From the NCBI GenBank assembly GCA_049322675.1, contig JBMORM010000009.1:92995-156994 (forward strand): DNA of 64,000 nt, in the 5' to 3' direction. Positions 1,000 to 59,874 of the stretch are shown here, in pieces; position 1 is the first letter of the stretch; each line of letters opens with the position of its first letter. A program made the position numbers and the translations under genes. This DNA comes from Patescibacteria group bacterium. GTDB lineage: Bacteria; Patescibacteriota; JAHJAL01. The notes under the pieces were generated by a model that was not told where the DNA came from, ran no database searches, and worked only from the letters and a program-made list of their open reading frames with translations.

Positions 1000-1319
1000 G
1001 TTCGGTTTTTGTTTATTTCTTCTTTTTCCCGGAAAGATTTTTCCAGATCAATATCGAAAAGATTGCATATTTGCAACAAATACATTAAGACATCCGCGGC
1101 CTCGTGTCCGAGATCGTATTTGAGAGAATTTTGGTCAGTGTGAATATTGGTCGTCTTTCTGGCTGCTTTGGCTAGTTCACCACATTCTTCCAGAAAAAGC
1201 ATAAATACTTCCGGAGTAGTTTCTTTTTCAAACCCACGTTCAATTATCATATCTGAGACATACTTTTGAAAATCCTTGAGAGTTGGATTATTTTTTAATT
1301 GTAATTTACTTTCTGCCAT
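990..1319 (-). CDS. MazG-like nucleoside triphosphate pyrophosphohydrolase domain protein
   Basis: 109-aa ORF with EECGELAKA and HEAADVLMYLLQ motifs typical of the MazG/NTP-PPase all-alpha fold. It overlaps the start of the upstream oxidoreductase by a few nt. Confidence 0.5.
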   Translation of the reverse strand: MAESKLQLKNNPTLKDFQKYVSDMIIERGFEKETTPEVFMLFLEECGELAKAARKTTNIHTDQNSLKYDLGHEAADVLMYLLQICNLFDIDLEKSFREKEEINKNRTWQ

Positions 1320-1320
1320 T

Positions 1321-1380
1321 GAAAATTGATTATTGGAGATTTATTGGAAATTGAGAATTGAAAATTGGAAATTGAATGAA
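1321..1380. repeat. Copy of GGAAATTGGAAA/TTGAAAATTG short repeat family
   Basis: gaaaattgattattggagatttattggaaattgagaattgaaaattggaaattgaa. The same motif clusters recur at 1690-1760, 1905-1930, 26581-26665, 29990-30120 and 35531-35565. Confidence 0.5.
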
Positions 1381-1760: not shown

Positions 1761-2049
1761 CTAATGAAACGTGTCATCCTGGAACTGGAAGGTAATCCGT
1801 TCCAATATCCAGGATCCATTTCCTTATTCTAATACATTTTTTTTCTTTCTGGATCCTGGATGTCGAAGTGCGATTACGCTTTCGGCTCCAGGATGACATC
1901 TTTTTGTTTGGAAATTGGAAATTTGACGTGATTTGTCAACATCAGTTTGATCCTCGTGAGGGAAAAAATTATAAATTGCAAATTGAACTGGATATTGTTA
2001 TATTGAATTTATCACGATGAGAGGCCGCACCTAAGGTTTCGTCCGAAGG

Positions 2050-11100: not shown

Positions 11101-14100
11101 ATTGAAACGAGAGAAATGCAATTGATAACCGTCGGCATTTGCATCTTCAAATTCCCACCATTGATCAGTATTTGCCGGATAATAGCTGGGATAATTGGGG
11201 GAATTGACAGTGGTGTTTTTTTCCTGCCAGACCATACCATTATCCGTGAAATCAATTTTTTCATAGCTGTCAATCAAGAATCCCGGGCCTGTATTGCTGT
11301 CATTGCTGACAAAATGAACTTTGATTTGGTTGGTATCATAAAAATCACTCCATTCATCAGTTGTATTCCCGTTGTATGTTCTTAATAAATTATCTTCTGC
11401 GTCATACAAATCGATATAGTCAACACCTTCTTCGATGTCTATCACGGAAAAGTGAACACGAATTCTGGCGGTATTGGAGCCGGGGTTGATTTCCTGCCAG
11501 GTGTCATCATTGTCATTGTAGTTTGCCGGATAGTTGGGAGAAGCCACATTCAGGCCATCTATATAGATTGGATCATTTACCTCATAATCATCAGGATAAT
11601 TGGGAGACGACAAACCTTGTTGACTATCATAACTTGAGATACGGAAACCGCGTGCAGTATTGGAACCGTCGGCGACAAAATGAATTTTGACTAGATCTCC
11701 TGGCACCCAATCACTGGTAAAAGACCCAAGGTCGCCGCTATATGTCGTAATCACATTGTCGTTTTTGTCAAGCAGCTCGACAAAATCTTGAGTTTCTTCG
11801 GTGGCGAAATCCGAAAAATTCAAACGTATTCTGGTGGCCCCCGGATGATTTATTTCCCACCACCTATCAGTACTATCCAAATAATCTTGAGGGTAATTAT
11901 CCGATCTGATCGAACGACCATATTCGTATTTGTCGATCAGGAAACCGGCAAAGTTGGCCGAACCGTCGCTGACAAAATGAACTTTGATCCGATCTCCACC
12001 TACCCATTCGCTATAAAAGGCACCGAGGTCGCCGCTATATGTTTCTTGAACGTTGTCATTGCCATCCAATATTTCCACAAAATCATATCCTTCTTCGGTC
12101 TCAAAGTCAGCAAAATGTACTCGCATTTCGGTAGCATTGGGCTCATATATTTCATACCATTGGTCTTGGTTTTCATTGTATTGTGATGGATAACGACTAG
12201 AAGAAGGCGCCTGGCTCGCTTGATAATAATCAATCAGCCAGCCTTTGTAATTGTTGTCACTATCGGTATAAAAAGAGTAGTTGAAGACATCGCCACTAAT
12301 GGCCGGACTAAAAGATGATCCGAGGTTTCCCGATAAACTATATCCGTCGGTAGCAAAACCCGCATAGTTAAATTGATCAACGCCTTCTTCGGTTACAAAA
12401 TCATCGAAGTGAACTCGAATCATTCTGGCGTCGGGATGCCAGATCTGATAATTTTCCAATGACAAATCACTGTCATAATCACTAGGGTAATTGGGAGAAC
12501 TTTCAAGGTAATTGGTTCCACCCGAATCGCTCAAAGAAAAAGTTTGCCATTCAAACACGACTTCTTGATTACTAAGATTGTTGGTTTGCAAACCAATGCT
12601 TTGTTCAGTATTGGTATTGGTTCCATAGGAATGAGTATTGGTTGTTGCCTCTTCACCGACAACCAAATAATCATCCACACCATCGGTCTGAACGGAACTT
12701 TTGTATATAGCGTCGGATGACCAGCCTTCAGACGAAGAGCCGTCCAAGCCGGTAGTGGAGGCCACGGTCATATTACGTAAAATCGCATTACAGTCTCCGC
12801 CACAACTGCCATCGTTATTGAAAGCGGTGGTTATGTTTGTGCCAGACAAAGCATCATTGAAATTCCACTGGGCCAATAAGCCGGTCGTATTGCTGATTTT
12901 TTCCGGAATAGTGGTACTGCCGGAAGTGGACCATTCGACTTGAGTTTGTTGAGTGGGACTGTTACTATTTTGTGTCCAGGAAATATTGACTGTGCCAGTG
13001 GAGCTATTACAACTGGGACAACCGCCGGAGACAGTCAGATTGACGGGGTTTTTGGGGCGACATTGGATATTGGCAATTTGATATTCACTTTCAATAATAT
13101 CGCCATTCAACAATTTGATTTGAACTTTATAACTATAGGAATTTCCGCTATCAATATTCATATCTAGTAATTCGTTGTCATCGACCGAAACAGGACTTAA
13201 TATTTGGCGACTAACGCTGCCAAAATCATCTTTGAAAATATATGTTGATTCAATATTTTGCAGTTGAGTCCAATTCAATTTGATGGATGGAGTGGCGGAT
13301 TCACAATCGATAACGTAGCTCAATTCGATCACTGGTTGATAAGCAAACAAATCGGAGTTGCAATAAAGTGGCACAGTCACTTTGTCCACGCTGGGAACAG
13401 AATAATGCGGGAATTGATAATGTTTTTGTAATGTTTCTCCAGATGGCCAGAATAATAAATCCAGATCATAGGTGGTAGTTTGGTCGGTCTCGCTAGCCAA
13501 ATTTAAATCATAGGTATAAACCGGCATGTGAGCATAAACCCGATAAGTAGCGGCACAATCGGCGATGCCGTCATTATTGTCGTCAGGGTCTATGTCGTCG
13601 GCCCAGCTATCATTGTCGCTATCCGTGTCATCGGTATTATTGATGCCATCGCCATCCAAATCCAAATCCCAAGAATTGCTTTCGCTATCATTGTCCAAGT
13701 CAAAATCATAATCAATCTCATCCGCATCGGCGATGCCGTCATTGTCATCATCGACATCCAAATAATCAGGAATGCCATCATTGTCGTCGTTCAGATCTTT
13801 ATTGTTGTTGAATGTATCAGCGTCAATATCGTAGTCCAGATAATTTTTTCGACCATTGTCATCCAAATCATCATCAGGATCACTGGCACCTCCGCCGCTA
13901 TCTTCGTCGTCAATATTTGGCGTTCCGTCATTGTCTTGATCAACATCTTGCCAATCAGCTATGCCATCATTGTCGTCGTCCTGGTCGATTTCCAAATTGT
14001 CAGGTGTGCCGTTGGCGTTGTTGTCGGCATCAAATGTATTGGGAATACCGTCATTATCAACGTCTTGTTCTTGGTAATTGGGAACACTATCGGAGTCAAG

Positions 14101-16626
14101 ATCACCGTTGGGATCGATGAATCCGGGAAAAACCGTCCAATTGATCCCGTCGTTGTCTTTGTCAAAATCATCGCCGTTGAGAATACCGTCATTATCCAAA
14201 TCGTTGTCCGCGTCAGGAGTTGTAGTCGCACCATATGCGGGATCCTCAATATCGACAATACTATTATTGTTTAAGTCTCGGGTGCGATAGTTGGCGCGAT
14301 CGATAAAACCATCCAAATCACTATCATTGCGACATTGATCATTGTCAACACAAGTAGCTTCACAGCTAGACAATTCAATGTCGGAATAGCCGGGCGAGGT
14401 GGGATAGCGGAAGAAATCAGTTGAGATTTCTTGCAGCCTTAGGTCCCAGTCGTAGGGTTTTGCCCAGTTGTCATATACATCATCGCCAGTCAAGTCATAC
14501 CAGACAGCAGTAATATTTTCCCAAATATTTTTGGTTGGCCCCAAAGGTAGTTCATCGCGAGTAAGGTAATAGCGCTGGGCATCGGTAACTTTGTCCCAAT
14601 TTAGTTTGACTATTGGTTTTTGTCCCTGACATTTGGTAGAGGCCTGGATAGAAAATTCGGGAGCGGAAAAATCAGGATTATTGATCACTACTTTTCTTTC
14701 ATTTGGCTGATTATTGTATTCATTCTCCTCTTCCAAATTGATTGATGACGGATCAGTAGTTAAACCGCCAGTTTTGATTCGAAATGGCAAATCAAAATTG
14801 CCGGTATAACTGTAATACGGACCAAAATTTAAGGGGGTGGCGCCAGCCGGTTGATACGACATCGAGAGAGTAACTTTGGTTTGAATACGATGAAAAGGGT
14901 GAGATAGATCATTTTCCGCAAACGAAGCAGTAAAGGTAGAATTGGAAAGGTAGTCATCGAGAGTAGTTTGATTGGGATTGATAACCGTATCGCCCAAAGA
15001 AATATTTTTCAGTTGGTTGTTGCTATCGGTATAGCCGTAATCCAAATCGGTGCGAAAGGCGTCATCCAACCAAGCTTGAATATCAGTTTGAGCGGAGTGG
15101 TTGACACAGTTGAGATCCTGGACAGCGATCGAGAGATTAATAGAATCATTTTGATCGTATATGCCTTGGTCGAGGTTGAAGTTGTAGGCAAAATCACCAA
15201 TCACTTCCCCGCCGTATGTAGTTTGAACATAATATGTTTTGGCTTCCGCTGCCTGTTGATAAAAAACAAACAAGCCACCAAACCCGATAATCGCCCAAAG
15301 AGTCAATTTACTTAGTTGCGAATATCGCTTTTTGACGATTAGCCAGCCGATTAAGCAAATGACAATCAAAACCAGAAAATAAATGATGTAATCCAAGATT
15401 TTAGCTTTAGCAAATTTGTCCGGTGATTTGGCTGGTTGTTTATATTGATATTCCAAGGTGGAAAGGATTTTATTGTTGTCCAGAGTTTGGTTGGCGACAA
15501 TCTCGGACTTAATAATTGGTTCAACGCACTTGGAAGATAAGGAAACAGGGAAACTAAATATTTTATTTAGATTGTTTTCGAGTTTCTTTTGATAGTTTTC
15601 GCTACAAGCATGACCATCTTTTTGATCGATAATAATTAATGATAGAGTTGCGTCGGACAATTGACTTGGGATACCTAGACGATTATTGATTACTCGATCG
15701 GCCGAGTCAGACCAAAAAACGCGAGCAACCGTCGTCTCGTCTGCTTCAAAAATCGCTTTGTCCAAACTAACATTTTGAATAGTAGCGGATGGACCAGCGA
15801 TGACAAAATGAATCGGAACTATTCCGCCGATTACCTCCGATTGATTGGTAGATACGATCAATTTTGCTTCATAGGCTTGTGGAGAAAGATCATTGATTGG
15901 GGGTAAATTCCAACTGACTTCTCGGCTTTCGCTGGGCTTAAGAGTGACCGGTTGATCAAGTGAAGATGCATTTACTTTTTCACCGGCCAAAGAGCGATAA
16001 TAAACGGAAAAATCGGGATCAATGTTTAAGTTTTGGTTAATCGGGTTTTTGAGTTGGCAGATAATTTGCAAAGATTCTTCTCTTTTAACAACCACACCCT
16101 CACTGACTGAATATTTTTGGGAAGAATTATTGTTTTCACCTTCAATTGCGAGATGACAGGATTTTTCGCTAATATTCAAGGTTAATTTTTTTTCGGGCAA
16201 ATCGATCGTCCCAGCTTTAATATTACCCAAAGGAAGAGAATTGCTGTTGACGGCTATCACCCAAACATCGATTTTTCCCTGTACATAAGTTGGCAATTTG
16301 TAGGTGATTTTTGTCGATTTGTATTCGTCGGGATTCAACGACAGTTTTTGGCCACTCATCCATTGATCGATTATCTTTTCACTTCCTTCTTGGTTTTTCA
16401 TAATCTTGATTCCGAGCCGTATGTCACCTTGCAATTGATTTCCGTTTTGCAACCCAAAATTTATTTCCAATTGTTGATTACGGTTATTTTGTACTGATGC
16501 ATCCACAATATCCATGTCGGCTACCAAGGTGGTCTGCCAGTCGGTATTATTGGCGGCAAAGACCGGTGCAGGGACAAGAAAGAAAAGACAAATAATGATT
16601 GGTTGTATTTTTTGGAATAGAGTCAT
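5173..16626 (-). CDS. Giant (3,817 aa) secreted/membrane-anchored multidomain protein with about 10 CUB-like domains, thrombospondin-type-3-like calcium-binding repeats, Fn3-like and LamG-like modules
   Basis: The ORF is uninterrupted. It begins with a signal peptide (MTLFQKIQPIIICLFFLVPAPVFA). It contains repeated ~110-aa units matching the CUB consensus but lacking the canonical cysteines: SPNYPxxY..W.I....I.L.F..F..E...D...I.DG....GS....IKVHFVSD.S..GF.I..Y. A tract of about 250 aa carries DNDGIPD/DxDxDGxxD repeats. A LamG/ConA-like segment is present (...YLGRTGWGTDQYAQGKYDYLRVYDRALSKDEI). The C-terminal region holds two tandem ~150-aa repeats (TDGSLKITFAPQF.. / TDGSLKVALDPEF..). Confidence 0.75.
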   Translation of the reverse strand: MTLFQKIQPIIICLFFLVPAPVFAANNTDWQTTLVADMDIVDASVQNNRNQQLEINFGLQNGNQLQGDIRLGIKIMKNQEGSEKIIDQWMSGQKLSLNPDEYKSTKITYKLPTYVQGKIDVWVIAVNSNSLPLGNIKAGTIDLPEKKLTLNISEKSCHLAIEGENNNSSQKYSVSEGVVVKREESLQIICQLKNPINQNLNIDPDFSVYYRSLAGEKVNASSLDQPVTLKPSESREVSWNLPPINDLSPQAYEAKLIVSTNQSEVIGGIVPIHFVIAGPSATIQNVSLDKAIFEADETTVARVFWSDSADRVINNRLGIPSQLSDATLSLIIIDQKDGHACSENYQKKLENNLNKIFSFPVSLSSKCVEPIIKSEIVANQTLDNNKILSTLEYQYKQPAKSPDKFAKAKILDYIIYFLVLIVICLIGWLIVKKRYSQLSKLTLWAIIGFGGLFVFYQQAAEAKTYYVQTTYGGEVIGDFAYNFNLDQGIYDQNDSINLSIAVQDLNCVNHSAQTDIQAWLDDAFRTDLDYGYTDSNNQLKNISLGDTVINPNQTTLDDYLSNSTFTASFAENDLSHPFHRIQTKVTLSMSYQPAGATPLNFGPYYSYTGNFDLPFRIKTGGLTTDPSSINLEEENEYNNQPNERKVVINNPDFSAPEFSIQASTKCQGQKPIVKLNWDKVTDAQRYYLTRDELPLGPTKNIWENITAVWYDLTGDDVYDNWAKPYDWDLRLQEISTDFFRYPTSPGYSDIELSSCEATCVDNDQCRNDSDLDGFIDRANYRTRDLNNNSIVDIEDPAYGATTTPDADNDLDNDGILNGDDFDKDNDGINWTVFPGFIDPNGDLDSDSVPNYQEQDVDNDGIPNTFDADNNANGTPDNLEIDQDDDNDGIADWQDVDQDNDGTPNIDDEDSGGGASDPDDDLDDNGRKNYLDYDIDADTFNNNKDLNDDNDGIPDYLDVDDDNDGIADADEIDYDFDLDNDSESNSWDLDLDGDGINNTDDTDSDNDSWADDIDPDDNNDGIADCAATYRVYAHMPVYTYDLNLASETDQTTTYDLDLLFWPSGETLQKHYQFPHYSVPSVDKVTVPLYCNSDLFAYQPVIELSYVIDCESATPSIKLNWTQLQNIESTYIFKDDFGSVSRQILSPVSVDDNELLDMNIDSGNSYSYKVQIKLLNGDIIESEYQIANIQCRPKNPVNLTVSGGCPSCNSSTGTVNISWTQNSNSPTQQTQVEWSTSGSTTIPEKISNTTGLLAQWNFNDALSGTNITTAFNNDGSCGGDCNAILRNMTVASTTGLDGSSSEGWSSDAIYKSSVQTDGVDDYLVVGEEATTNTHSYGTNTNTEQSIGLQTNNLSNQEVVFEWQTFSLSDSGGTNYLESSPNYPSDYDSDLSLENYQIWHPDARMIRVHFDDFVTEEGVDQFNYAGFATDGYSLSGNLGSSFSPAISGDVFNYSFYTDSDNNYKGWLIDYYQASQAPSSSRYPSQYNENQDQWYEIYEPNATEMRVHFADFETEEGYDFVEILDGNDNVQETYSGDLGAFYSEWVGGDRIKVHFVSDGSANFAGFLIDKYEYGRSIRSDNYPQDYLDSTDRWWEINHPGATRIRLNFSDFATEETQDFVELLDKNDNVITTYSGDLGSFTSDWVPGDLVKIHFVADGSNTARGFRISSYDSQQGLSSPNYPDDYEVNDPIYIDGLNVASPNYPANYNDNDDTWQEINPGSNTARIRVHFSVIDIEEGVDYIDLYDAEDNLLRTYNGNTTDEWSDFYDTNQIKVHFVSNDSNTGPGFLIDSYEKIDFTDNGMVWQEKNTTVNSPNYPSYYPANTDQWWEFEDANADGYQLHFSRFNLDGSDSLEIYDGDDNLLTSLNGELGSFWTDLYSGIPKLKIRLLTDGDTNQSGFKIDKYRYYAPKIWTINSVGADYLNLHFADFDVNDDPSCDYVQVLDTSNNVVGTYRGWNMPSFDVVVGGETAKIRMLRQCGGGRGWLLNSYNVLNQQGIYSSNYPYNYDSNTDQTQTITQPGANNISLHFSVFNTFDENDYLQILDNSDNLLAEYSGNLGSFDTPYFLTDTIKLKFITNDSDNDTGWQIDSYRYQTGGGAIMQDIENNDQVTIETMAKIDQMAGGYFPIFARDNFWQFGLDENQGLVFGSESDHTSCAYTPLLHNWQQYAVSYDRSNNQIDFYIDGQTVCSGPADIDLSNTGLMPIYLGRTGWGTDQYAQGKYDYLRVYDRALSKDEIRDIYENNNNTYNWNSEPIDISSPNYPYIWPNSDNTYDWTIQKAGASQIQIHFDEFKWDYDQCGYYEFSSGVGNYPQDRLQIMDASDNVLHTCNVDGCPNVYTVNGDTVKLRLTSVAYIKHEATSYPDNANTANCRLFDEALARRFKIDYYRWTQDSSGWQTINTTNSNSVTWTPPKATLGGQTIYFRAKTCDGQNCAPNYIYATQSFGPCGRPDGLEINPNPVSMMNLGSSAPVTTYVTCGDEYYLDNTGKKYNVPNYFFTGSGGLGNITFDSNLLSCRSNISVGNSNDIRSASSSIVLTDNSGYFFGTNSEEIDLSSPNYPDLVTGWNAGDSVSYTINKPGATRMRVYFDYYVLWPDNVKVNGVDQSTHDGFAPFYSNIVNGSTINITFNATVDREGYFGFHINRVEWDDANSAEGMPPCSGTMTATVNNFEGYGALSGTADVNVLNDNLTLSGNWDCSEYDALYNRQAGKVNLSWNAIEGASGYVVLIPQYDSSYESYYAFSYVDDQLSYSVDLLDSVNRKYIVWAVDDQWRPLATSNIVTVSGTCPTGDNTISYAFADCSDTSNPKVNIVVPGRDTGSSSPLWLEKFSGTTSTWEQDLTTTVMSPNYPAASPTNVTQTWIYTKPGAAEVRAHISASRLAYGASVEFYDKNDNLIGGAWDDICYSMTAPGDTIKVVYNFTTTFPYYSEYEGSWIYYSSPVYFAIDRFESRVDTGMGYYQRQANEYQTIIDENVIDGQTYTYAPKIGGYESTTSYFLENRRYKEIYSYNPATITVNCSTMPAAPTNLSVNDTCPACGIRVITPHLSWDTVTGASRYKAQYYYRYKHWVDYDLATPGFPAETTGDTQIDWEISHPGAYAIELDLTSVQNAHEVYDYQYYQGVIFVDKEGYVVDSLARDLEYVIGSEAYQSYYHKLTLPIEGDTVYIQGDLDMGAGPAIFKIDGYYYYDYNPVGGEPAWIDIGTTTDTNIDAEIDVYKANGHQINYRVFSIDADDNYGTPATLTQTFTCSIPQSITYNPASMTLNNNGDTLAYQSLARCSLGETITIDESLNNLQETLSSGLNTCSTGTTINNKRIVSGSNASNCSGSLSGVTTKPFTFSSYRWPYPLNGQAPVQILGSFSPTDTNTDSTLNDAIVSPQVSSPTRHILRYDIRQSQIITDGSLKITFAPQFNLVGLNSSDIGITGGDVIWSSAIVNTIENTIVIPFSGSLDSSDDAVEISLGETNFINNPADLGDYPVYLTSHTSTDGSGDNVDYASDTISIIDASLNDVLSDSIAEEYSKHTIHYNITGDTDITDGSLKVALDPEFDFSSVTSTDIIVNGGGVDWGTPTVDTDQNTVVLPFTGTLVGGSNGLITIVIGNDHLVQNPANIDSYLVLLFGYESTDGSGDPVMMHQTRVAITGGVMVTASIPSLLTFTVSGVEADQSVNGSLTTIPTTNTSINFGVLEPNSSKVAAHDLLVEQNAADGFVVTVQQSHTLSSNNDTINNYSGSNTNPIEWTEPTEGQKGYWGYTTNDSMLSNGVQNRFISNKWAGLAAAPAEVMYHHGPTSGTNDINGQARVGYQIEITDLQSAGFYQTEIIYICTATY

Positions 16627-20915: not shown

Positions 20916-20998
20916 GCGGTCGGGGAGACTTGAACTCCCACGGGTTGCCCCACATGCACCTCAAGCATGCGCGTATACCAAATTCCGCCACGACCGCT
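20916..20998 (-). tRNA. tRNA-Leu (anticodon GAG), no encoded CCA
   Basis: Reverse complement is GCGGTCGTGGCGGAATTTGGTATACGCGCATGCTTGAGGTGCATGTGGGGCAACCCGTGGGAGTTCAAGTCTCCCCGACCGCA. It has a long variable arm, the anticodon loop TTGAGGT and a T-loop GTTCAAGTC. Confidence 0.85.
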
Positions 20999-21235
20999 CG
21001 TCGGAGTCGTTCTTAACGTTTCGTGCGAGCCAGACATACTGTCTCCCACTTCACTTCCAGAACGCCTCCTCCTCTACAAAAAAATTTCTGCGACAATTTT
21101 TTTGTTAAGATACATTCGGGAATACGATCCTATCGTTTCGTGCGAGCCAAAACGTTTTGGATGGGTGAGCGCGAGACCTGCCCGTACAGTAAAGGATCGG
21201 TTCTTTTTCCCGAAAATTTCTTTGATAATTTTTAC
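20999..21235 (-). repeat. Two tandem units (about 105 and 130 nt) of a conserved tRNA 5'-leader element
   Basis: Minus-strand unit B (20999-21104) reads aaaaaattgtcgcagaaatttttttgtagaggaggaggcgttctggaagtgaag...ggctcgcacgaaacgttaagaacgactccgacgagcg and joins directly to the tRNA. Unit A (21105-21235) repeats the aaaattatcaaagaaattttcggg...ggctcgcacgaaacgataggatcgtattcc architecture. Homologous copies lie at 26716-26818 and 23420-23563. Confidence 0.6.
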
Positions 21236-23038: not shown

Positions 23039-23254
23039 TTAGATAATAATATTGGCAATCGAAGCGGTAATAAAGAATACCGTCAGGACAATAGTTCCCC
23101 AATGTAGGAATTTTTCTAAACCTCTTTTGCTTTGGTAGATGTTACTTTCCCCGCCAAATACACCCCCCAAGGCTGAACCTTTGTGCTGCAGCAAAATAAA
23201 AACCACAATCAGGACGGAGATGACAATTTGCCCGTACATTATGTATTGTTGCAT
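23039..23254 (-). CDS. secG: Preprotein translocase subunit SecG
   Basis: 71 aa with two TM helices and the central LLQHKGSALGGVFGG motif. Confidence 0.7.
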   Translation of the reverse strand: MQQYIMYGQIVISVLIVVFILLQHKGSALGGVFGGESNIYQSKRGLEKFLHWGTIVLTVFFITASIANIII

Positions 23255-23348
23255 ATTTGTTTATTTAATAATGAATAATGAAGAGTGAATAATAACCTAT
23301 AATAAATATTTTATTATTAACTATTCATTTTTAATTATTAATTCAAAA

Positions 23349-23419: not shown

Positions 23420-23563
23420 TCGTCGGAACACGATCCTACCGCTACACGCAAGTCAAAAGTATTTGCCTTTCGTTTCGCTACCGGATCGGTTCCTCCTCTA
23501 CAAAAAAATTTCTACGACAATTTTTTTGTTAACATACATTCAGGAACACGATCCTATCGTTTA
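23420..23563 (-). repeat. tRNA 5'-leader element copy upstream of tRNA-Cys, plus the tail of a preceding unit
   Basis: The minus-strand reading is ...aaacgataggatcgtgttcc|tgaatgtatgttaacaaaaaaattgtcgtagaaatttttttgtagaggagga...gcgtgtagcggtaggatcgtgttccgacgag, then the tRNA. It shares the AAAAATTGTCG.AGAAATTTTT..GGAGGA core and the ggatcgt.ttcc unit end. Confidence 0.55.
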
Positions 23564-26580: not shown

Positions 26581-26665
26581 AATTTCCAATTTCCAGTTCT
26601 TCCCTCACGGGACCGAACTACTGCTGGCAATTTCCAAAAAATTTCCAATGATCAATTTTCAATGA
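26581..26665. repeat. Copy of GGAAATTGGAAA/TTTCCAATTTCC short repeat family
   Basis: aatttccaatttccag...gcaatttccaaaaaatttccaatgatcaattttcaatg. The reverse complement shares about 36 nt with the copy at 1690-1760. Confidence 0.5.
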
Positions 26666-26715
26666 AAAGTTCGTTTTTGAAATTTTAAATTATGAATCTG
26701 GTATTTAAGTCTCCC

Positions 26716-26818
26716 AAAAATTGTCGAAGAAATTTTTGGGAAAAGGAGGAGGCGTTCTGGTAGTGAAGCATGAGACGGTATTCCGGCTCATGTGAAACGA
26801 TAAGAACGACTCCGACGC
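26716..26818 (+). repeat. Conserved tRNA 5'-leader element (clearest copy), immediately upstream of tRNA-Val
   Basis: caaaaattgtcgaagaaatttttgggaaaaggaggaggcgttctggtagtgaagcatgagacggtattccggctcatgtgaaacgataagaacgactccgacgcgg. The 24-nt block GGAGGAGGCGTTCTGG.AGTGAAG and the GAAACG.TAAGAACGACTCCGACG block are identical or near-identical to the tRNA-Leu(GAG) copy. Confidence 0.6.
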
Positions 26819-26892
26819 GGGCGGTTAGCTCAGCTGGTTAGAGCGCTTGCCTTACACGCAGGAGGCCAAAGGTTCGATCCCTTTACCGCCCA
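26819..26892 (+). tRNA. tRNA-Val (anticodon TAC), no encoded CCA
   Basis: GGGCGGTTAGCTCAGCTGGTTAGAGCGCTTGCCTTACACGCAGGAGGCCAAAGGTTCGATCCCTTTACCGCCCA: a canonical cloverleaf with the anticodon loop CTTACAC. Confidence 0.85.
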
Positions 26893-26912
26893 TTGAAAAA
26901 AGGAGAGTAAAT

Positions 26913-27542
26913 TTGATAATTAAAAAAAGAGACAACTTTTTTGTCATTGCCGTTTTTTTGTTGTTGTTTTTTGCAGTGTGGTTTTTTATTAGGACCATGA
27001 TTGGTTCTGCTGTTGATACAAAAATTTCGACGGCGATTTTTGATTTTGGTCATAGTGATTTTCTGACCATATTTTTCTTGTTTATCACAAATTATACTTT
27101 GGGAGAAATAGCTGGGGTTTTTGCGGTAATGATTTATGGCGCTTTTTGCAAGGATAAATTTTTCTTGATTATTTCGAGCCTTGTTTCTTTATTAATTTTG
27201 GCAGCCGATTGGTTTCTAAAAAATATTTTTGTTCGTCCCAGACCATTTGTTACCTTGCCTGAAGTAGAAAATATTTCTGATTATATTTTACGTGATTATT
27301 CATTTCCTAGCGGACATACGGTATTCGCTTTTTTTATCGCTTACATCCTAACCCATCGTTTTCAATTTGTCGGGATAAAAAAGTATTCAATATATTTCTT
27401 GGCGATTTTGGTTGGTTTTTCCAGGATATATCTGGGAGTTCACTACTTTGGAGATGTTCTTGCCGGAGCTATACTGGGATCATTGTTTGGAATTATAACA
27501 ATGTTGATTATGAATAAATACCCTCGAACTATTTTGAAATAA
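26913..27542 (+). CDS. PAP2-family (phosphatidic acid phosphatase type 2 / undecaprenyl-PP phosphatase-like) membrane protein
   Basis: PAP2 motifs are FVRPRPF, SFPSGHT and SRIYLGVHYFGDVLAG. I chose the TTG start at 26913, which has an AGGAGA Shine-Dalgarno 6 nt upstream, because the upstream ATG at 26847 overlaps tRNA-Val. Confidence 0.65.
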   Translation: MIIKKRDNFFVIAVFLLLFFAVWFFIRTMIGSAVDTKISTAIFDFGHSDFLTIFFLFITNYTLGEIAGVFAVMIYGAFCKDKFFLIISSLVSLLILAADWFLKNIFVRPRPFVTLPEVENISDYILRDYSFPSGHTVFAFFIAYILTHRFQFVGIKKYSIYFLAILVGFSRIYLGVHYFGDVLAGAILGSLFGIITMLIMNKYPRTILK

Positions 27543-27562
27543 TAAAAAATTTAACAAAAATA

Positions 27563-27596
27563 ACCCCCCTATTTATCTTAAGGGGGTTTTGGTTTT
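27563..27596. terminator. Hairpin plus T-run between convergent genes
   Basis: aaCCCCCCtatttatcttaaGGGGGttttggtttt. Confidence 0.5.
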
Positions 27597-27608
27597 ATTT
27601 ATAATTTT

Positions 27609-29231
27609 CTAGACCGGTCGATTTTTTAGGATATTTCTTTGGGAGCGACGATAAAAACCATACAAGATAAACAGGATGGGAACACCGAGAGTAAGACCCC
27701 AACGCAAACCGGTTTTCTGTCCCTCGGACAAAGGTCCGATTGGTCGATCGGTGACACCTTTTGATCTGATTTGAATTAGTGTGTCACCCAGAGTGAGAGA
27801 ATCAAGACAGTTGTAGAAAAACAAGTCATTGCCAGCAAATGACTGACTGAGAAAATCGGAATCGCTGACCAAAATTATTTTTCCTTCGTTTTGAGCTTGT
27901 GCCATGACAACTAGAGGTAAAGGGTCTTTGCTCTGTCTGGTAATACCAAAATCTTGTTCGGGGCCGAGATTGATTGGTTGCAAGGTCTTTTGGGCAGGTG
28001 CATCAGCGTTGCCTTCGGTATTTGTATTAGCTGGTGCGGTTACTTCTTGTTCGGAAATGAGATTATAATACTGAGAAGTCGAAGCAAGTACTTCGGTATT
28101 AACTCCATCTTTTTTGTCTATCTTAATTGGGTTAGCCCAAGGTATAGTAAAAGACTCGAGGTTACTGGTGATCGCGTTATTTTGGTTAATATTGGTAACT
28201 TTGGTAAAAAATGGATATGGCACAGAGTATGTTACATAACCCTGATTGAAACTGGCCATATCATTGCTTGAATCGGCAACCAGTTTGGGTTCGATCGAAA
28301 GTCCCCATTTGGATAATAGATTCTGGTAGTCATTTTCTAATCGAGAAGAAGAAAAAGAGTAGCTCAATTCTTGCTTCATCCGATCAATCAAGAGAATGGC
28401 GTTTTTGCCTTTGGCGACAAAGTCATGTATTTGTTTTGCTTCTTCATCGCTAATCGGTTCGGTAGGACCGGGAATAATCAAGGTATCGATTTCATCAAGC
28501 GGATTGGTTTTATCTTCACCTTCTTTGGTGGACAAATCTATTGTTTTAATATCATAATTGCGAGCCAGTTCTTTCTCAAATTTGTAGTCGGCCCGAGGAT
28601 CGTTGCCGGCAAATTGGGAAGAGGAAGCAAAAGTATGTTCGCCATGTCCGGTTAAAAACCCGATCTTTTTTTGACTTACTGAGCCTACTTTCAAAAGCAT
28701 CGAACCCAAATCATATTCAAGGTTTTCCAGATTTTCTATTACTGGTAATGTTTCTTTATTACTATATCCGGAAAGAACACCGGCTGTTTGGCCAGTTGGA
28801 GTATTTTGAGTTTCGCCTTTTTTGAGAACAGCCAAACCAAAATATGCTTTGATTACCTGCATTTGATCTTTGTCAACCACTTGCAGATCCAAGGCGGGAA
28901 TATTGAGACTTGTCGCCATTTCTTCGGAAGTTTTGTCTTTTGCCGGATCGACAATAGTCAAAGAAATTTTTCCTTTGGCCATATTTTCGTACTCATGAAG
29001 CTTGTCAACGACTTGAGTTTTGGTTGATACAAATTGCGGAGGCAGAGTATCGGAAATAAACGCCTTGATTTCAACACCTTCCGGAAGATCATTGACTATT
29101 TGTTTACTGGCAGATGACAAGGTATAAATTTTTCCTTGCGTAAAGTCAAGTCGGAAAAAAAACAAATTTGACAATAGGTTAACGATGATGAAAATCGAGA
29201 CAAACAAAAATATTTTACTTGAATGAAACAT
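27609..29231 (-). CDS. GldG-like ABC-2 transporter auxiliary component (COG3225-like)
   Basis: 540 aa. An N-terminal TM is followed by LDFTQGKIYTLSSASKQIVNDLPEGVEIKAF, typical of the Gldg family. A C-terminal TM is present. It is the last gene of a three-gene ABC operon. Confidence 0.55.
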   Translation of the reverse strand: MFHSSKIFLFVSIFIIVNLLSNLFFFRLDFTQGKIYTLSSASKQIVNDLPEGVEIKAFISDTLPPQFVSTKTQVVDKLHEYENMAKGKISLTIVDPAKDKTSEEMATSLNIPALDLQVVDKDQMQVIKAYFGLAVLKKGETQNTPTGQTAGVLSGYSNKETLPVIENLENLEYDLGSMLLKVGSVSQKKIGFLTGHGEHTFASSSQFAGNDPRADYKFEKELARNYDIKTIDLSTKEGEDKTNPLDEIDTLIIPGPTEPISDEEAKQIHDFVAKGKNAILLIDRMKQELSYSFSSSRLENDYQNLLSKWGLSIEPKLVADSSNDMASFNQGYVTYSVPYPFFTKVTNINQNNAITSNLESFTIPWANPIKIDKKDGVNTEVLASTSQYYNLISEQEVTAPANTNTEGNADAPAQKTLQPINLGPEQDFGITRQSKDPLPLVVMAQAQNEGKIILVSDSDFLSQSFAGNDLFFYNCLDSLTLGDTLIQIRSKGVTDRPIGPLSEGQKTGLRWGLTLGVPILFILYGFYRRSQRNILKNRPV

Positions 29232-29240
29232 AAAAAATAA

Positions 29241-29966
29241 TTAGCGTTTGTTATAAAGGAAATAGGTATTGAAATAAAGTGCCAAAGCAATAAATGACAG
29301 GTAATATAAGACGTCGCGACTGTCTATAACACCTCTGGTAATTGATTCATAATGAGCACCAAAGCTTATGAAATTTATTATTTCAACTAAGAAATTTGGC
29401 AAGGAATAGGTGACAACCGGCTGCGCCAGGATAAATAAAAAGAAGGAGATCAAGACGGAAATAATAAAAGCGACGATTTGATTTTTTGTCAGAGAACTGA
29501 CGAGCAGCCCCAAAGAAATATAACCGGCGCCGATCAGGAGCGATCCCAAGTAGGAAACTATAGTTGCGCCCCAATCAAGTTTTCCCAGAAAAGATAGGGC
29601 GATTGGTAGTGGCAGAGTACAAGCCAAGGCAATAAAAAGGAAGAGTAAACTGGCACAAAATTTTGATGCTACGATCAAAGGAAGAGGAACGGATGATGTT
29701 AATAAATTTTCAATCGTGCCCTGTCGAGATTCTTCCGCCCATAATCTCATAGTCAAAGCCGGAATCAGAAACAAAAATGTCCATGGTAGAAAATTAAAGA
29801 ACGATCGCATATCTACTTGGCCAACCAGAAAAAAGTTACGGAAAAATAACCAAAAAGTTAGCCCCAATAGCACCATTACAAAAATGTAAGCAATAGGAGT
29901 ATTAAAATAAATACGGAGTTCTTTTTTGACAATTGAGCTAAATTGGATAAAAAATTTAGATGACAT
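29241..29966 (-). CDS. ABC-2 family transporter permease (GldF-like)
   Basis: 241 aa polytopic membrane protein with about 6 TM helices, sitting between the ATPase and the GldG-like gene. Confidence 0.55.
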   Translation of the reverse strand: MSSKFFIQFSSIVKKELRIYFNTPIAYIFVMVLLGLTFWLFFRNFFLVGQVDMRSFFNFLPWTFLFLIPALTMRLWAEESRQGTIENLLTSSVPLPLIVASKFCASLLFLFIALACTLPLPIALSFLGKLDWGATIVSYLGSLLIGAGYISLGLLVSSLTKNQIVAFIISVLISFFLFILAQPVVTYSLPNFLVEIINFISFGAHYESITRGVIDSRDVLYYLSFIALALYFNTYFLYNKR

Positions 29967-29989
29967 AAAAAATTTATAATTTTCAATTT

Positions 29990-30120
29990 AAAATTTACAT
30001 TAAATTTCCAATTTCCAATGATCAATTTCCAAAGAAGGCTCAATTTCCAAACAGATTGTATTCATTGAAAATTGAAAATTAGACATTTTTTGGAAATTGG
30101 AAACTGGAAATTGGAAATCT
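29990..30120. repeat. Inverted pair of GGAAATTGGAAA-family repeats in the spacer between the ABC ATPase and permease genes
   Basis: aatttccaatttccaatgatcaatttccaaag ... cattgaaaattgaaaattagacattttttggaaattggaaactggaaattggaaatc. The two halves are in opposite orientation and can form a long imperfect hairpin. Confidence 0.5.
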
Positions 30121-31042
30121 ATTTCGTGAGTTCGTGGAATATGTCTTCCATGCTGTTTTCTTTGAAAGTTATTTCGAGCAAATCAAAGCCGCGGCCGATA
30201 ACTGCTTTATTGATTTCTGAACGCAAATCGGTGTCGGATTCAATGATAAAAAGATGGATGCCGTGTTGTTTACTTGCTTCTTTTTTGATATTACCGGCAC
30301 CGGGAATTTTTTTGATAGTAGAAATAATATCGTCTGCATCGCCTTTAATTGTGACCAGAATCTGATACGCTGATGCTTGGCCTCTTTTTATATCAGCAAG
30401 GCTACCGTCAGCGACCAAATGACCGTCTTTTATTAGTATGACTCGATCGCAGATGGCCTCAACTTCTTGCATGATGTGCGTGGATAAAATAATGGTCTTT
30501 TCTTTACTGAGAGAGGCGATCAATTCGCGGATTTCAATAATTTGGTTAGGATCAAGACCGGTGGTCGGTTCGTCCAGAATCAAAACTTGGGGATCATGAA
30601 TCAAGGCACAGGCCAAAGCCACTCGTTGTTTGTATCCCTTGGAAAGTTCAGATATATCTTGAAAAGTTTTTTCTTTTAAACCACAGGATTTGATTACTTT
30701 TTGGATGGCGCGTTTTTTGTCATTGCCGGTCAACCCATGAATTTCGGCAGCAAATTCCAATTGTTCATAAACTGACAGCTCAAAGTATAAAGAAGCAGAC
30801 TCCGGAAGGTAACCAATCATATTTTGGGCTGGTATCAGATCGGTAGTCACGTCGAAATCACCCACTTTGACTTGACCGGCGGTTGGCTTCAAAAATCCGG
30901 TAATAATACGCATGGCTGTCGTTTTGCCCGCGCCATTTGGTCCCAACAGTCCGACAATTTCTCCTTTGTTGATAGAAAAATTTACTTCTTTCAGAGCGGT
31001 ATGTGATCCGTATTTTTTGACAAGGTTATTTACTTCAATCAT
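30119..31042 (-). CDS. ABC transporter ATP-binding protein (GldA-like, ABC-2 type)
   Basis: Walker A is LLGPNGAGKTT, with signature LSKGYKQRVALA and Walker B ILILDEPTTGLD. The likely start is MIEVNNL at 31042. Confidence 0.8.
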   Translation of the reverse strand: MIEVNNLVKKYGSHTALKEVNFSINKGEIVGLLGPNGAGKTTAMRIITGFLKPTAGQVKVGDFDVTTDLIPAQNMIGYLPESASLYFELSVYEQLEFAAEIHGLTGNDKKRAIQKVIKSCGLKEKTFQDISELSKGYKQRVALACALIHDPQVLILDEPTTGLDPNQIIEIRELIASLSKEKTIILSTHIMQEVEAICDRVILIKDGHLVADGSLADIKRGQASAYQILVTIKGDADDIISTIKKIPGAGNIKKEASKQHGIHLFIIESDTDLRSEINKAVIGRGFDLLEITFKENSMEDIFHELTK

Positions 31043-31157
31043 ATTTGTTGTGAGGTAATTATTTTTTTCATACTTGTATATTTTAAATAATTTTTTTAAT
31101 TTGAGCAAATATAAAGTTGAGATATAATTTATCTAGTTTTAATAAATAATTATTGTT

Positions 31158-33451: not shown

Positions 33452-34824
<1,373 letters not shown>

Positions 34825-34891
34825 TTAATAAAAATTTAAGGAGTATTTTGTTAAATTAACAATTAACAATGAAAAATTAACAATAAAAATT

Positions 34892-35257
34892 ATGAAAGAT
34901 AAACAAAATAATGTTATTCAAATAAAATCATTTAATTTTTCAATAAGGATAATAAAATTATCTTTGTATTTATCAAAGCAAAAATGGGAATATATAATTT
35001 CAAAACAGATAATAAGGAGCGGAACTTCAATAGGGGCAAATATAGAAGAAGCAATTGGCGGCTATTCTAAAAAAGATTTTATGAATAAAATTTCTATTGC
35101 GTACAAAGAAGCAAGGGAAACATTATATTGGATTAAATTATTATATGCCACAAATTTTTTATCAGAAAAAGAATATCATTCCATATCAATTGATTGCCGA
35201 GAGCTACTGAAAATTTTAACTAAAATATTGATTACTTGCAAAAAAAGTAAAAGTTAA
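34892..35257 (+). CDS. Four-helix-bundle protein (23S rRNA intervening-sequence protein family, PF05635-like), antisense insertion inside the atp operon
   Basis: 121 aa. The motifs RSGTSIGANIEEAIGGYSKKDF and KEARETLYWIKLL are diagnostic for this family. Imperfect inverted repeats flank the gene (ttaaattaacaattaacaatgaaaaattaacaat / ttaattgttcattgttaattttt). Confidence 0.7.
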   Translation: MKDKQNNVIQIKSFNFSIRIIKLSLYLSKQKWEYIISKQIIRSGTSIGANIEEAIGGYSKKDFMNKISIAYKEARETLYWIKLLYATNFLSEKEYHSISIDCRELLKILTKILITCKKSKS

Positions 35258-35281
35258 TTATTAATTGTTCATTGTTAATTT

Positions 35282-36193
35282 TTAAATGGCATTCGCACCA
35301 GCAACTATTTCTGCTAGTTCTTGAGTTATTGCTGCTTGTCTGGCTTGGTTGTAAGCCAGATTAAGACTATCGATCATGTCGGTAGCCGATTTGTGAGCAT
35401 TTTTCATAGCCAGCATGCGGGCGGAATGTTCGGAAGCGTCGGACTCTAGTACGGCTTGATAGATTTGGAGTTCTAATATTCGAGGCAGGATTTGGTCTAA
35501 GACCAATTTCGGGGAGGGCTCATACCGGTAGTCAATTTTCAATTTCCAATTTTCAATTTTCAAAATATCAGATTTATCATTAGAGACGACTCCGATTTCT
35601 GAATCCGGGCGGGTTTTTAGGGGTAATAATTTTTTAATGATTGGTTGCTGTTTTAGAGTTGAAACAAAGTCGGTATAGACTAGATAAACGGCTTGATATT
35701 GTTTTTGAACAAAACCGTCTAATAATAATTTGGAGATTGGTGAAATAGTTGAGATTTCGTTCAATAAATCAGGTTTGTCAAAATCGGCAGCAATATCGTA
35801 CTTTAGGCGACGAAGTTGGTCACGAACTTTGCGTCCGAAAGTAAGAAAAGTATGATTGATATTTTTCTGTGAAAGTTCTTTACTGCAGGATATACACTTT
35901 TTTAATACATTGCCATTGAAAGCACCGCACAATCCCCTATTTGATGAAACAACTAGGATAGCGGCGTGTTTTATTTTTTTCGGATTTTTAAGCAAGGGAT
36001 GAATATATTTTGGATTGGAAAGAGATATTTTTTCGATTATATTCCAGGCCAAGTTTGAATAATTTCTGGACAAGACAACTTGACTTACCGCTTTGCGCAT
36101 CTTGGAAGCTGCCACTAGCTCCATGGCTTTGGTAATTTTTTTAGTATTTTGGATTGATTTAATCCGATGTTTTATTTCTTTACTTTGGGACAT
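35282..36193 (-). CDS. atpG: F0F1 ATP synthase subunit gamma
   Basis: 303 aa with conserved N- and C-terminal helices (..LAMKNAHKSATDMIDSLNLAYNQARQAAITQELAEIV). Confidence 0.85.
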   Translation of the reverse strand: MSQSKEIKHRIKSIQNTKKITKAMELVAASKMRKAVSQVVLSRNYSNLAWNIIEKISLSNPKYIHPLLKNPKKIKHAAILVVSSNRGLCGAFNGNVLKKCISCSKELSQKNINHTFLTFGRKVRDQLRRLKYDIAADFDKPDLLNEISTISPISKLLLDGFVQKQYQAVYLVYTDFVSTLKQQPIIKKLLPLKTRPDSEIGVVSNDKSDILKIENWKLKIDYRYEPSPKLVLDQILPRILELQIYQAVLESDASEHSARMLAMKNAHKSATDMIDSLNLAYNQARQAAITQELAEIVAGANAI

Positions 36194-37726: not shown

Positions 37727-37843
37727 ACAAAAGATTTAATTTTTAATTTCTAATTTAAAATTTTCAATCATTTAAGAAAATTGCCGATTGCAATATTTAA
37801 GAGTTGATTGAAAATCATAAATCATAAATTGAAAACAAAAAAA

Positions 37844-59803: not shown

Positions 59804-59874
59804 TACAATTTTTAATTTTTAATTTTTAATTTTTAAACACATATTGTTTAGAAACTAAAAATTAGAAATCGATG

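Follow-up and report, generated by a model that had tools for sequence, protein, structure and literature searches.

Heptameric intergenic repeats have been known since 1990, as the short tandemly repeated repetitive (STRR) sequences, and have been used in strain fingerprinting; several phyla show a strong excess of them. Elhai reportedly described, in 2008, small dispersed repeats lying within heptamer hairpins. Heptameric simple sequence repeats (SSRs) are reported to be in excess between the genes of Xanthomonas and Nostoc, with 70–75 convergent pairs per Xanthomonas genome, and their function was called unknown in 2015 (PMC4692102); TAACTGA repeats occur in Beggiatoaceae, cyanobacteria and Bacteroidetes (PMC4679880). 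A further system with heptamers is the intervening sequence (IVS) of the Coxiella 23S rRNA gene, in which tandem GACAGAT units, variable in number among strains, are found directly upstream of an open reading frame (ORF) of the PF05635 (S23p) family, within an insert closed by a 28-bp terminal stem and reported to be cut by RNase III at the first repeat (PMC4990558). In the rRNA genes of the candidate phyla radiation (CPR), 23S_rRNA_IVP ORFs are accompanied by numerous short inserts that lack an ORF and occupy known IVS sites (PMC11270868). Term searches of the two articles on SSRs and TAACTGA repeats (PMC4692102, PMC4679880) gave no mention of four-helix-bundle, IVS or PF05635 genes, and our literature search found no general link of PF05635/four-helix-bundle genes to heptamer arrays, the single case being Coxiella. 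Here we describe a dispersed palindromic element made of GGAAATT-type heptamers in a 64,000-nt stretch of a Patescibacteria (CPR) genome (contig JBMORM010000009.1, positions 92,995–156,994; hereafter the window), and compare it with these systems.

The analysis covered the 64-kb window and fragments of related loci, on a gene map of crude mechanical longest-ORF calls that leaves 7.4% of the window non-coding; the G+C content is 37.8%. The motif GGAAATTGGAAA, allowing at most one mismatch, was found 13 times in the window against 1.99 ± 1.47 times in dinucleotide-preserving shuffles, with 13 reached in 0 of 100 shuffles, and nine of the 13 matches lie in non-coding DNA. TTGGAAAWTG was found 11 times where 2.0 occurrences were expected, and a degenerate 28-nt core, AAATTGANNATTNGANATTTNTTGGAAA, has four matches (1323+, 1726−, 26631− and 30069+) and none in the shuffles. 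Among 185,579 species-representative genomes the core pattern was matched only in a metagenome-assembled genome (MAG) labelled "Patescibacteria group bacterium", and the GGAAATT element is also present in other Patescibacteria assemblies. Viral contigs gave no exact match either to the arm core or to the 135-nt core described below, and a phage origin of the two was rejected on this ground.

All the clusters are periodic at 7 nt, with period-7 arrays returned by Tandem Repeats Finder at every site, and they make up the paired arms of a repeat element that is dispersed and imperfectly palindromic. The arm, ≈56 nt in length, consists of eight 7-nt units in fixed order (TTGAAAA TTGATCA TTGGAAA TTTTTTG GAAATTG RRAAYTG GAAATTG GAAATTT). 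Across the window and six further loci, 16 arms align essentially ungapped to a single consensus, without 7-nt indels (L001–L004 and L007 were used as aligned beside the window; the metagenome contigs are unbinned, and the number of distinct genomes is not established). This fixed order of eight different units, kept ungapped through 16 copies, indicates the copying of a master sequence. A profile made from the 16-arm alignment retrieved six arms in the window, five of them strongly (arms A, B and D and both arms of element E, Table 1) and a weaker one in atpG. Arms occur as inverted partners around either a short loop or a cargo (two tRNAs; a 135-nt palindrome), and complete hairpin copies were found in L001, L002, L004 and L007.

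A previous inspection of the window (the sequence-only reading) had reported intergenic clusters of the motif at five sites, 1321–1380, 1690–1760, 1905–1930, 26581–26665 and 29990–30120, here referred to as A to E; the observation is confirmed, the motif being present at each of them. The same reading assigned a near-identical core of about 36 nt to three sites: arms B and D are indeed near-identical over 36 nt, whereas in E and A this arm has diverged further. The inverted pair it saw between ABC transporter genes is borne out by the fold, and its proposal of a miniature repeat element agrees with the ungapped arm consensus, the inverted pairs, the breaks in short-read assembly and the presence, absence or replacement observed at an orthologous site. 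It had also stated that the case would fail if the motif occurred as often as base composition predicts and without positional bias; counted within the window, this does not apply, because of the excess over shuffles and the bias towards non-coding DNA.

Site E holds a complete element. It is 121 bp long and consists wholly of inverted arms and loop, thus having the small size (below 300 bp) and the terminal inverted repeats of a miniature inverted-repeat transposable element (MITE). Its neighbours are minus-strand genes for an ABC ATPase and an ABC-2 permease; it starts at the stop codon of the former (30119–31108, minus) and ends 35 nt before the start codon of the latter (29966), and its hairpin measures roughly 45 bp. 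The mRNA-sense strand folds at −44.9 kcal/mol (z −5.75) into a perfect outer stem of 19 bp followed by two stems of 11 bp.

Orthologous ATPase/permease loci were reached via permease homologs; the loci derived from the core pattern showed no synteny with the window in tblastn. The gaps at the orthologous position (Table 1) are either empty or filled, and empty and filled sites, L008 as compared with the window, are again a property of MITEs. All the filled gaps follow one design, namely stop codon, array, loop, complementary array and start codon, with units that differ in sequence. A further related locus, L012, is syntenic with ≈19 kb of the window, and arrays have been gained or lost at many of its gaps. 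At the DNA level the element behaves as selfish DNA with a fast turnover: it appears, disappears or gives way to another 7-mer family at one and the same position. A short-read contig from another sample (L014), 100% identical to window positions 26629–30032, ends inside GGAAATT arms on both sides, as expected since the arm is a multi-copy repeat. Heptamer arrays fragment short-read assemblies of this organism, and they might also be taken for CRISPR-like arrays. Their units are contiguous and of 7 nt, unlike those of a CRISPR, where unique spacers of similar length set apart direct repeats of at least 23 nt, and no CRISPR-repeat family reached its gathering score in the window; the sole match, CRISPR-DR37, lies outside the arrays and scored 17.6 bits against a threshold of 40 bits (E = 4.3).

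In the region of sites A to C, flanked by a MazG-like ORF and an NYN-domain ORF, two arms enclose tRNA-Leu(CAG) and tRNA-Gly(CCC). Arm A fills the gap between the start codon of the MazG-like ORF (990–1319, minus strand) and the 3′ end of tRNA-Leu(CAG). In the predicted fold of the minus strand of 1300–1960 (−232 kcal/mol, z −13), arms A and B pair over their full length, with ≈55 nt per arm, and the stem encloses tRNA-Gly, a hairpin of about 110 nt and tRNA-Leu. This hairpin (1472–1583) is near-perfect, with arms of ≈25 bp, and fills the spacer between the two tRNAs; no Rfam family was matched at the gathering score, the only hits being sub-threshold models of microRNA precursors, that is, of long hairpins. 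A promoter-like sequence, TGGAAA-17-TACAAT (1724–1696), overlaps the end of arm B, with the last arm unit serving as the −35 hexamer. It is a weak match (9 of 12 positions). A promoter reading of the arrays in general was discarded, this being the single match, and the end of arm B may contribute locally to a promoter at tRNA-Gly.

Beyond arm B a GC-richer palindromic core of 135 nt is nested between this arm and the short arm C. Copies of the core with ≈90% identity were found in L002 (794–926, downstream of a gene that by inspection resembles RNase Y) and in L007 (11688–11809), in unrelated gene contexts and with the same flanking arms. Neither the core nor the arms matched any Rfam family, also in a permissive scan of 1250–2100, apart from microRNA-precursor (long-hairpin) models, and the strand-asymmetry test on the core gave an ambiguous result. 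A small ORF was rejected on inspection, as start codons and frames are not conserved among the three copies. The core could represent a stable RNA of small size or else be a mobile palindrome in its own right, nested within the other. In L012 an insert of 200 nt (10724–10923) is located between a permease and an auxiliary gene, where the window has 9 nt; it forms a GC-rich double hairpin, has the termini GTCATCC...GGATGAC of the window core (compared over 1773–1897) and is flanked by the AT-rich inverted arms AATTAATGAGT and ACTCATTAATT.

Site D lies among the genes for UvrD/PcrA, tRNA-Val and a PAP2 protein. Its arm is split by an insert of 31 nt (26598–26627) carrying a CCC-GTGA-GGG hairpin of the GNRA type, and the same split arm with the same insert was found in L001 (6020–6050), there with a partner arm. 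A sequence similar to the insert hairpin, CCTCGTGAGGG, is present at 1945–1957.

Within a wider class of heptanucleotide tandem arrays, similar to STRRs, the GGAAATT element is the family found most often locally; arrays of this class fill intergenic spacers throughout the lineage. An autocorrelation scan of the window returned 14 regions with period 7, against 0–2 each for periods 4–6 and 8–12; 12 of the 14 are non-coding, and they cover 8.3% of the non-coding bases. In 96 kb of related Patescibacteria loci the same scan gave 35 regions with period 7 and 0–10 for other periods. The unit families of the window include GGAAATT, AATTAAC, AATAATG, AATTTTT and TTTAATT, and several of them form hairpins. 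Elsewhere homogeneous arrays are found (AATTTTT x4 in the window, CTGGTCA x13 and TTAGTGA x17 in relatives), as distinct from the eight differing units of the GGAAATT arms. One array lies in frame inside atpG, where it takes the place of a variable loop; because the length is unchanged with respect to the L012 ortholog, its origin by insertion was rejected. A weak match to the arm profile (E = 5e-4) was also found inside the atpG of L015, a related MAG (2138–2169). As to other known elements, terminator-like sites were absent from the arrays, and canonical GC-rich terminators with a T-run occur elsewhere in the window (e.g., 27562–27588), so that a reading as intrinsic terminators was dropped; at gathering thresholds Rfam returned only five tRNAs and no rRNA gene in the window.

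A second arrangement of heptamers was found between atpG and atpD, where two complementary arrays surround an ORF of the PF05635 family (Pfam E-value 1.2e-25; TIGR02436), coding for a four-helix bundle whose closest solved structure is 2RLD. The flank duplex has a z of −5.0. At the same junction L012 has a gap of 43 nt and no ORF. The association was surveyed at 15 loci, i.e., the window and 14 others picked by sequence similarity and not at random: six loci from metagenomes or MAGs (another Patescibacteria MAG, Kapabacteria, Bacteroidia, Polaribacter and Planctomycetes) and eight finished plasmid records (Euhalothece, Anabaena, Nostoc, Planktothrix, Bernardetia, Chondrinema, Treponema and Monoglobus). 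Arrays of 7-nt units adjoin the PF05635 ORF at all 15, in at least seven phyla (Patescibacteria, Kapabacteria, Bacteroidota, Planctomycetota, Cyanobacteriota, Spirochaetota and Bacillota), with units as different as GAATTRR x19, CTGGTCA x13, TTAGTGA x17, GGTCGGA, GATTTAC/AATCCCC and CAGTGAA. At one locus, L034, the array is downstream of the ORF only, at a contig end. With this locus excluded, the downstream period-7 score was at least 15/21 in 14 of 14 loci (window + 13), and the upstream and downstream flanks formed a duplex with z ≤ −2.7 in 13 of 14. As a control, four of the eight period-7 arrays of a whole 82-kb plasmid fall within 30 nt of its two PF05635 genes, and of the two arrays present in all in a 50-kb Bernardetia region the larger one (120 bp) is 49 nt from the PF05635 gene.

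The PF05635 genes lie between cistrons of unrelated operons: cas2/cas1 in L026 (Anabaena cylindrica pANACY.01), hsdS/hsdR in L029 (Monoglobus plasmid), trpD/trpC in L021 (Polaribacter), the E and F genes of a type II secretion system in L022 (Planctomycetes), the membrane fusion protein and pump genes of RND efflux systems (three times) and atpG/atpD. Homologs of about 60% identity occur in phyla far apart from one another. Avd of the diversity-generating retroelements (DGRs) belongs to the family (PMC10053308), and "23S rRNA IVP" is named, in a figure legend of a large screen, among CRISPR-array-associated proteins (PMC10910872); we suspect that the latter association reflects the flanking arrays or the cas2/cas1 placement. 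The repeat-and-hairpin design common to these loci suggests where the long-unexplained 7-base repeats might originate.

Table 1. Positions of the arms, arrays, cargo and leaders in the window (unless another locus is named), and state of the ATPase/permease gap in relatives.
Feature	Position	Strand	Remarks
Arm A	1316–1375	+	Profile E = 1.4e-13; core pattern match; pairs with arm B in the minimum-free-energy fold
Cargo between arms A and B	1381–1683	−	tRNA-Leu(CAG) 1381–1465, hairpin 1472–1583, tRNA-Gly(CCC) 1611–1683; ARAGORN and Rfam
Arm B	1701–1758	−	17 nt upstream of tRNA-Gly; profile E = 2e-14
135-nt palindromic core	1770–1903		GC-richer; termini GTCATCC...GGATGAC; between arm B and short arm C
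Short arm C	1905–1925	+	TTGGAAATTGGAAATTTGAC; inverted with respect to arm B, its partner on the other side of the 135-nt core
Arm D	26581–26664	−	Between UvrD stop codon and tRNA-Val leader; profile 26621–26664, E = 1.1e-9
Element E	30001–30121		Left arm 30001–30050 (consensus on minus), loop 30051–30062, right arm 30063–30121 (plus); profile E = 6e-15, 9e-12
ATPase/permease gap, L008			Permease 83% identical; 17 nt, no element (window gap 152 nt)
ATPase/permease gap, relative			Permease 70% identical; TTTAAAC-type 7-mers
ATPase/permease gap, relative			Permease 67% identical; 109-nt hairpin, AATCAAT/ATTGATT units
ATPase/permease gap, relative			Permease 64% identical; 109-nt hairpin, GTGAACA x4 / CTCACTG x3
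AATAATG/CATTATT-type hairpin	23261–23343		Directly 3′ of tRNA-Cys; architecture of the GGAAATT element, other unit family
IVS-like cassette	34807–35281	+	Between atpG and atpD; AATTAAC-type array 34852–34887, PF05635 ORF 34892–35257, GTTAATT-type array 35248–35288
GAAAATT/GGAAATT array in atpG	35532–35565	−	In frame; encodes ..LKIENWKLKID..
TTTAATT- and AAATCAT-type arrays	37729–37843		Hairpin; atpH/atpA spacer
AATTTTT x4 array with partial inverted partner	59801–59874		Adjoins start codon of EamA transporter gene
tRNA leader	23421–23545; 20998–21125	−	
tRNA leader	26695–26818	+	
tRNA leader	L002 5414–5545; L004 5199–5330	−	

Some further features were recorded. A conserved structured leader of ≈100 nt adjoins the 5′ end of tRNA-Cys, tRNA-Leu(GAG) and tRNA-Val in the window and that of tRNA-Lys in two other assemblies; tRNA-Gly and tRNA-Leu(CAG) lack it. 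It comprises, in order, an AU hairpin (ACAAAAAAATT-GTCGNAG-AAATTTTTTTGT), the sequence GAGGAGGA and a long variable hairpin ending in GACTCCGACG, and 14 of its 31 predicted pairs are kept through two-sided changes in at least one sequence. Between the tRNA-Cys hairpin and the gene of an SBP_bac_5 protein, a short ORF (23103–23246, minus strand), below the 70-aa cut-off, is by inspection a candidate SecG; L012 has SecG (PF03840) at this place. The window also contains a single ORF of 3,817 aa (11.5 kb, 5173–16626, minus strand) and an ORF of 731 aa (51506–53701, plus strand) for a class II tRNA synthetase of the lysyl/aspartyl type with a C-terminal HD domain.

With the periodicity, arm consensus, inverted architecture, intergenic bias, turnover and PF05635 association described above, we favour, at a probability of about 0.55, a reading of the elements as IVS-like or REP-like selfish stem-loops processed in transcripts (REP, repetitive extragenic palindromic), because RNase III was reported to cut at such heptamers in the Coxiella IVS. 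Transcription through the arms, processing by RNase III and the way of spread are what we infer, the processing from the architecture and by analogy with the Coxiella experiment. The element appears to be part of transcription units, where it follows stop codons, precedes start codons or adjoins tRNAs, so that its arms would pair in RNA and give an AU-rich double-stranded stem of 20–55 bp. Stems of this type serve as RNase III substrates in true IVSs, where the insert is excised without re-ligation. A cut in the stem would part the RNAs on either side from each other or release the cargo, leaving those RNAs unharmed, and stems that escape cutting could act as 3′ stability barriers, like REP elements. 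With cleavage harmless or the 3′ end protected, an insert would be tolerated almost anywhere in an operon.

Several observations weigh against this reading. In a test of strand asymmetry based on G·U pairs in 10 hairpins, the sense strand was the more stable in four, the less stable in five and tied in one; as the sense strand was not favoured, the pairing may just as well reflect a DNA-level palindrome with no role in RNA. Arm D has no partner arm nearby in the window, and, if 1724–1696 is the promoter of tRNA-Gly, arm B would fall outside its transcript. Element E and its copies in L002, L004 and L007 showed no target-site duplication at their ends, though short ones would escape notice in the AT-rich flanks, and the ORFs scanned within the 64-kb window include no transposase or gene similar to the REP-associated tyrosine transposase (RAYT). 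Finally, the PF05635 gene of the window is flanked by AATTAAC-type and not by GGAAATT-type arrays, so the ORF-less element and the PF05635 cassette appear to be linked by class and not by shared sequence.

Neutral, slippage-prone simple-sequence DNA, with inverted pairs arising as palindromic duplications and with neither an RNA role nor a link to a mobile cassette, is a rival account that we hold rather unlikely. Heptameric SSRs are over-represented in many bacterial genomes, for which an explanation based on the polymerase footprint was proposed (Rehm 2015, PMC4692102), the number of heptamers differs between Coxiella strains (PMC4990558), arrays come and go between syntenic relatives, and the lack of a sense-strand preference in folding energy would fit as well. 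Slippage is at odds, instead, with eight different units in a fixed, ungapped order across 16 copies and with two hairpin arms that match one consensus; in three lineages, moreover, the ABC gap is occupied by a hairpin that is built alike from units unrelated in sequence, and slippage alone would not predict so tight an association with PF05635. That association, across at least seven phyla and with insertion between cistrons of unrelated operons, is the starting point for another view, in which the arrays would be the recognised ends of a mobile cassette, bound as DNA or RNA by a pentameric Avd-like PF05635 protein that mediates spread or maintenance, and the ORF-less hairpins its non-autonomous passengers. 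Homologs ≈60% identical in distant phyla and a family that includes Avd are in line with this proposal, but PF05635 proteins 58–68% identical have wholly different flanking units, the GGAAATT element and the local cassette differ in theirs, the family has no known enzymatic domain and in Coxiella the protein does not seem to be produced in vivo (PMC4990558), and on balance we regard it as improbable.

Roles of the arrays in expression were considered together with these. The sequence-only reading had proposed upstream activating or nucleoid-protein sites at stable-RNA promoters, in analogy to UP elements and Fis sites, and had placed two copies just upstream of tRNA units. The arms are A/T-rich, several arrays adjoin tRNA genes in the window, L002 and L012, and arm B, at 1700–1760, does end 17 nt upstream of tRNA-Gly, its last unit providing the −35 of TGGAAA-17-TACAAT. 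The claim holds for this copy; no other is directly upstream of a tRNA, since the one at 1320–1380 adjoins the 3′ end of tRNA-Leu, and that at 26581–26665 is 154 nt from tRNA-Val, in opposite orientation and beyond a separate conserved leader. Three other tRNAs of the window have this different leader and no GGAAATT array, the L002 hairpin is 3′ of tRNA-Lys, element E lies between cistrons, one array is in frame inside atpG, and unrelated 7-mers occupy the same positions in relatives. The orientation to the nearest tRNA varies. Sites of this type should stand at a set distance ahead of a promoter (about −40 to −150) and point one way, which applies to arm B only; the reading fails at four of the five sites, and activation of the Fis/UP type is highly improbable as a general explanation. 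Another candidate role is that of a docking site for a regulator that binds single-stranded RNA and controls downstream translation (CsrA at GGA, or a protein of the cold-shock or S1-domain kind), as proposed for the Beggiatoaceae TAACTGA repeats. Many arrays end 0–45 nt before a start codon (site A, 59801–59841, the PF05635 ORF, L001 and L007), Bacillus subtilis CspB was reported to bind one heptamer per protein (PMC4679880), and GGAAATT offers a GGA every 7 nt. Most arrays, on the other hand, have a complementary partner and would be double-stranded, the AATTAAC, AATAATG and AATTTTT families contain no GGA, and unit sequence is not conserved at orthologous sites, which makes a sequence-specific binder unlikely; we give this possibility little weight.

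Going beyond the favoured reading of the single element as a processed stem-loop, we advance tentatively, as possible though doubtful, that heptamer arrays in general (cyanobacterial STRRs, Xanthomonas GGGAATC, Beggiatoa/Bacteroidetes TAACTGA and the GGAAATT arrays of this work) might be the termini of one unrecognised class of IVS-like cassettes. The full form would encode an Avd-like PF05635 protein, insert between cistrons as well as into rRNA helices and be harmless by virtue of RNase III cleavage of its heptamer stem, and ORF-less hairpins would be non-autonomous derivatives, some with captured tRNAs or small structured RNAs. The present work places heptamer repeats in the reduced genomes of Patescibacteria, where they build a palindromic element of defined structure around tRNAs and a small conserved palindrome, and it offers a testable hypothesis, namely that the arrays are the stems of IVS-like selfish inserts. 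It also raises the question of why a relative of Avd, a DGR accessory factor, should travel with heptamer arrays; Avd works as part of a complex that includes the reverse transcriptase and the RNA of the DGR.

When compared with the MITE-like Correia elements of Neisseria, whose hairpins are reported to be processed by RNase III, and with the enterobacterial repetitive intergenic consensus (ERIC), the repeat unit of pneumococcus (RUP) and the Rickettsia palindromic element (RPE), the element shares a size of 100–200 bp, inverted arms that fold, here by prediction, in transcripts and presence/absence polymorphism, and, with RPE, the occasional in-frame occupation of coding sequence. It differs from all of them in that no parental insertion sequence was found and in that its arms are tandem 7-mers over their whole length; nor was a target-site duplication seen, although the AT-rich flanks would hide short ones. 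With the REP sequences of Proteobacteria, their mosaic arrays (BIMEs) and the paired forms known as REPINs it has in common the nature of dispersed, imperfect and selfish palindromes in intercistronic positions or 3′ of genes, and REP stem-loops, which are transcribed, can stabilise the upstream mRNA, as those of the element may. REPs, however, are of 20–40 nt, GC-rich, without a 7-nt period and linked to RAYT, whereas the arms described here are of 56 nt and AT-rich, and the window holds no RAYT-like ORF.

The likeness to heptanucleotide repeats (cyanobacterial STRR, Xanthomonas GGGAATC, Nostoc GGGGAYT and TAACTGA) includes the 7-nt unit, a strong intergenic bias and several unit families per genome (PMC4692102, PMC4679880), as well as length and sequence that vary at the same gene pair in close relatives, frequent convergent stem-loop pairs and a position often just upstream of start codons. 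Homogeneous heptanucleotide arrays are nevertheless distinct from the GGAAATT arm, which is a fixed succession of eight units, brackets cargo, is AT-rich with no G-quadruplex potential and occurs in Patescibacteria. As in the 23S rRNA IVSs of Leptospira, Coxiella and Salmonella, a loop or an ORF is closed off by inverted repeats at the two ends, which give a stem of 20 bp or more; the optional PF05635 ORF is present in the 34807–35281 cassette, and the GGAAATT elements are ORF-less as many IVSs are, ORF-less IVSs being of 100–200 nt. Unlike the IVSs of helices 25 and 45, none of the elements described here is located in an rRNA gene: they occupy mRNA spacers, tRNA flanks and, once, a coding region, and their excision is a prediction.

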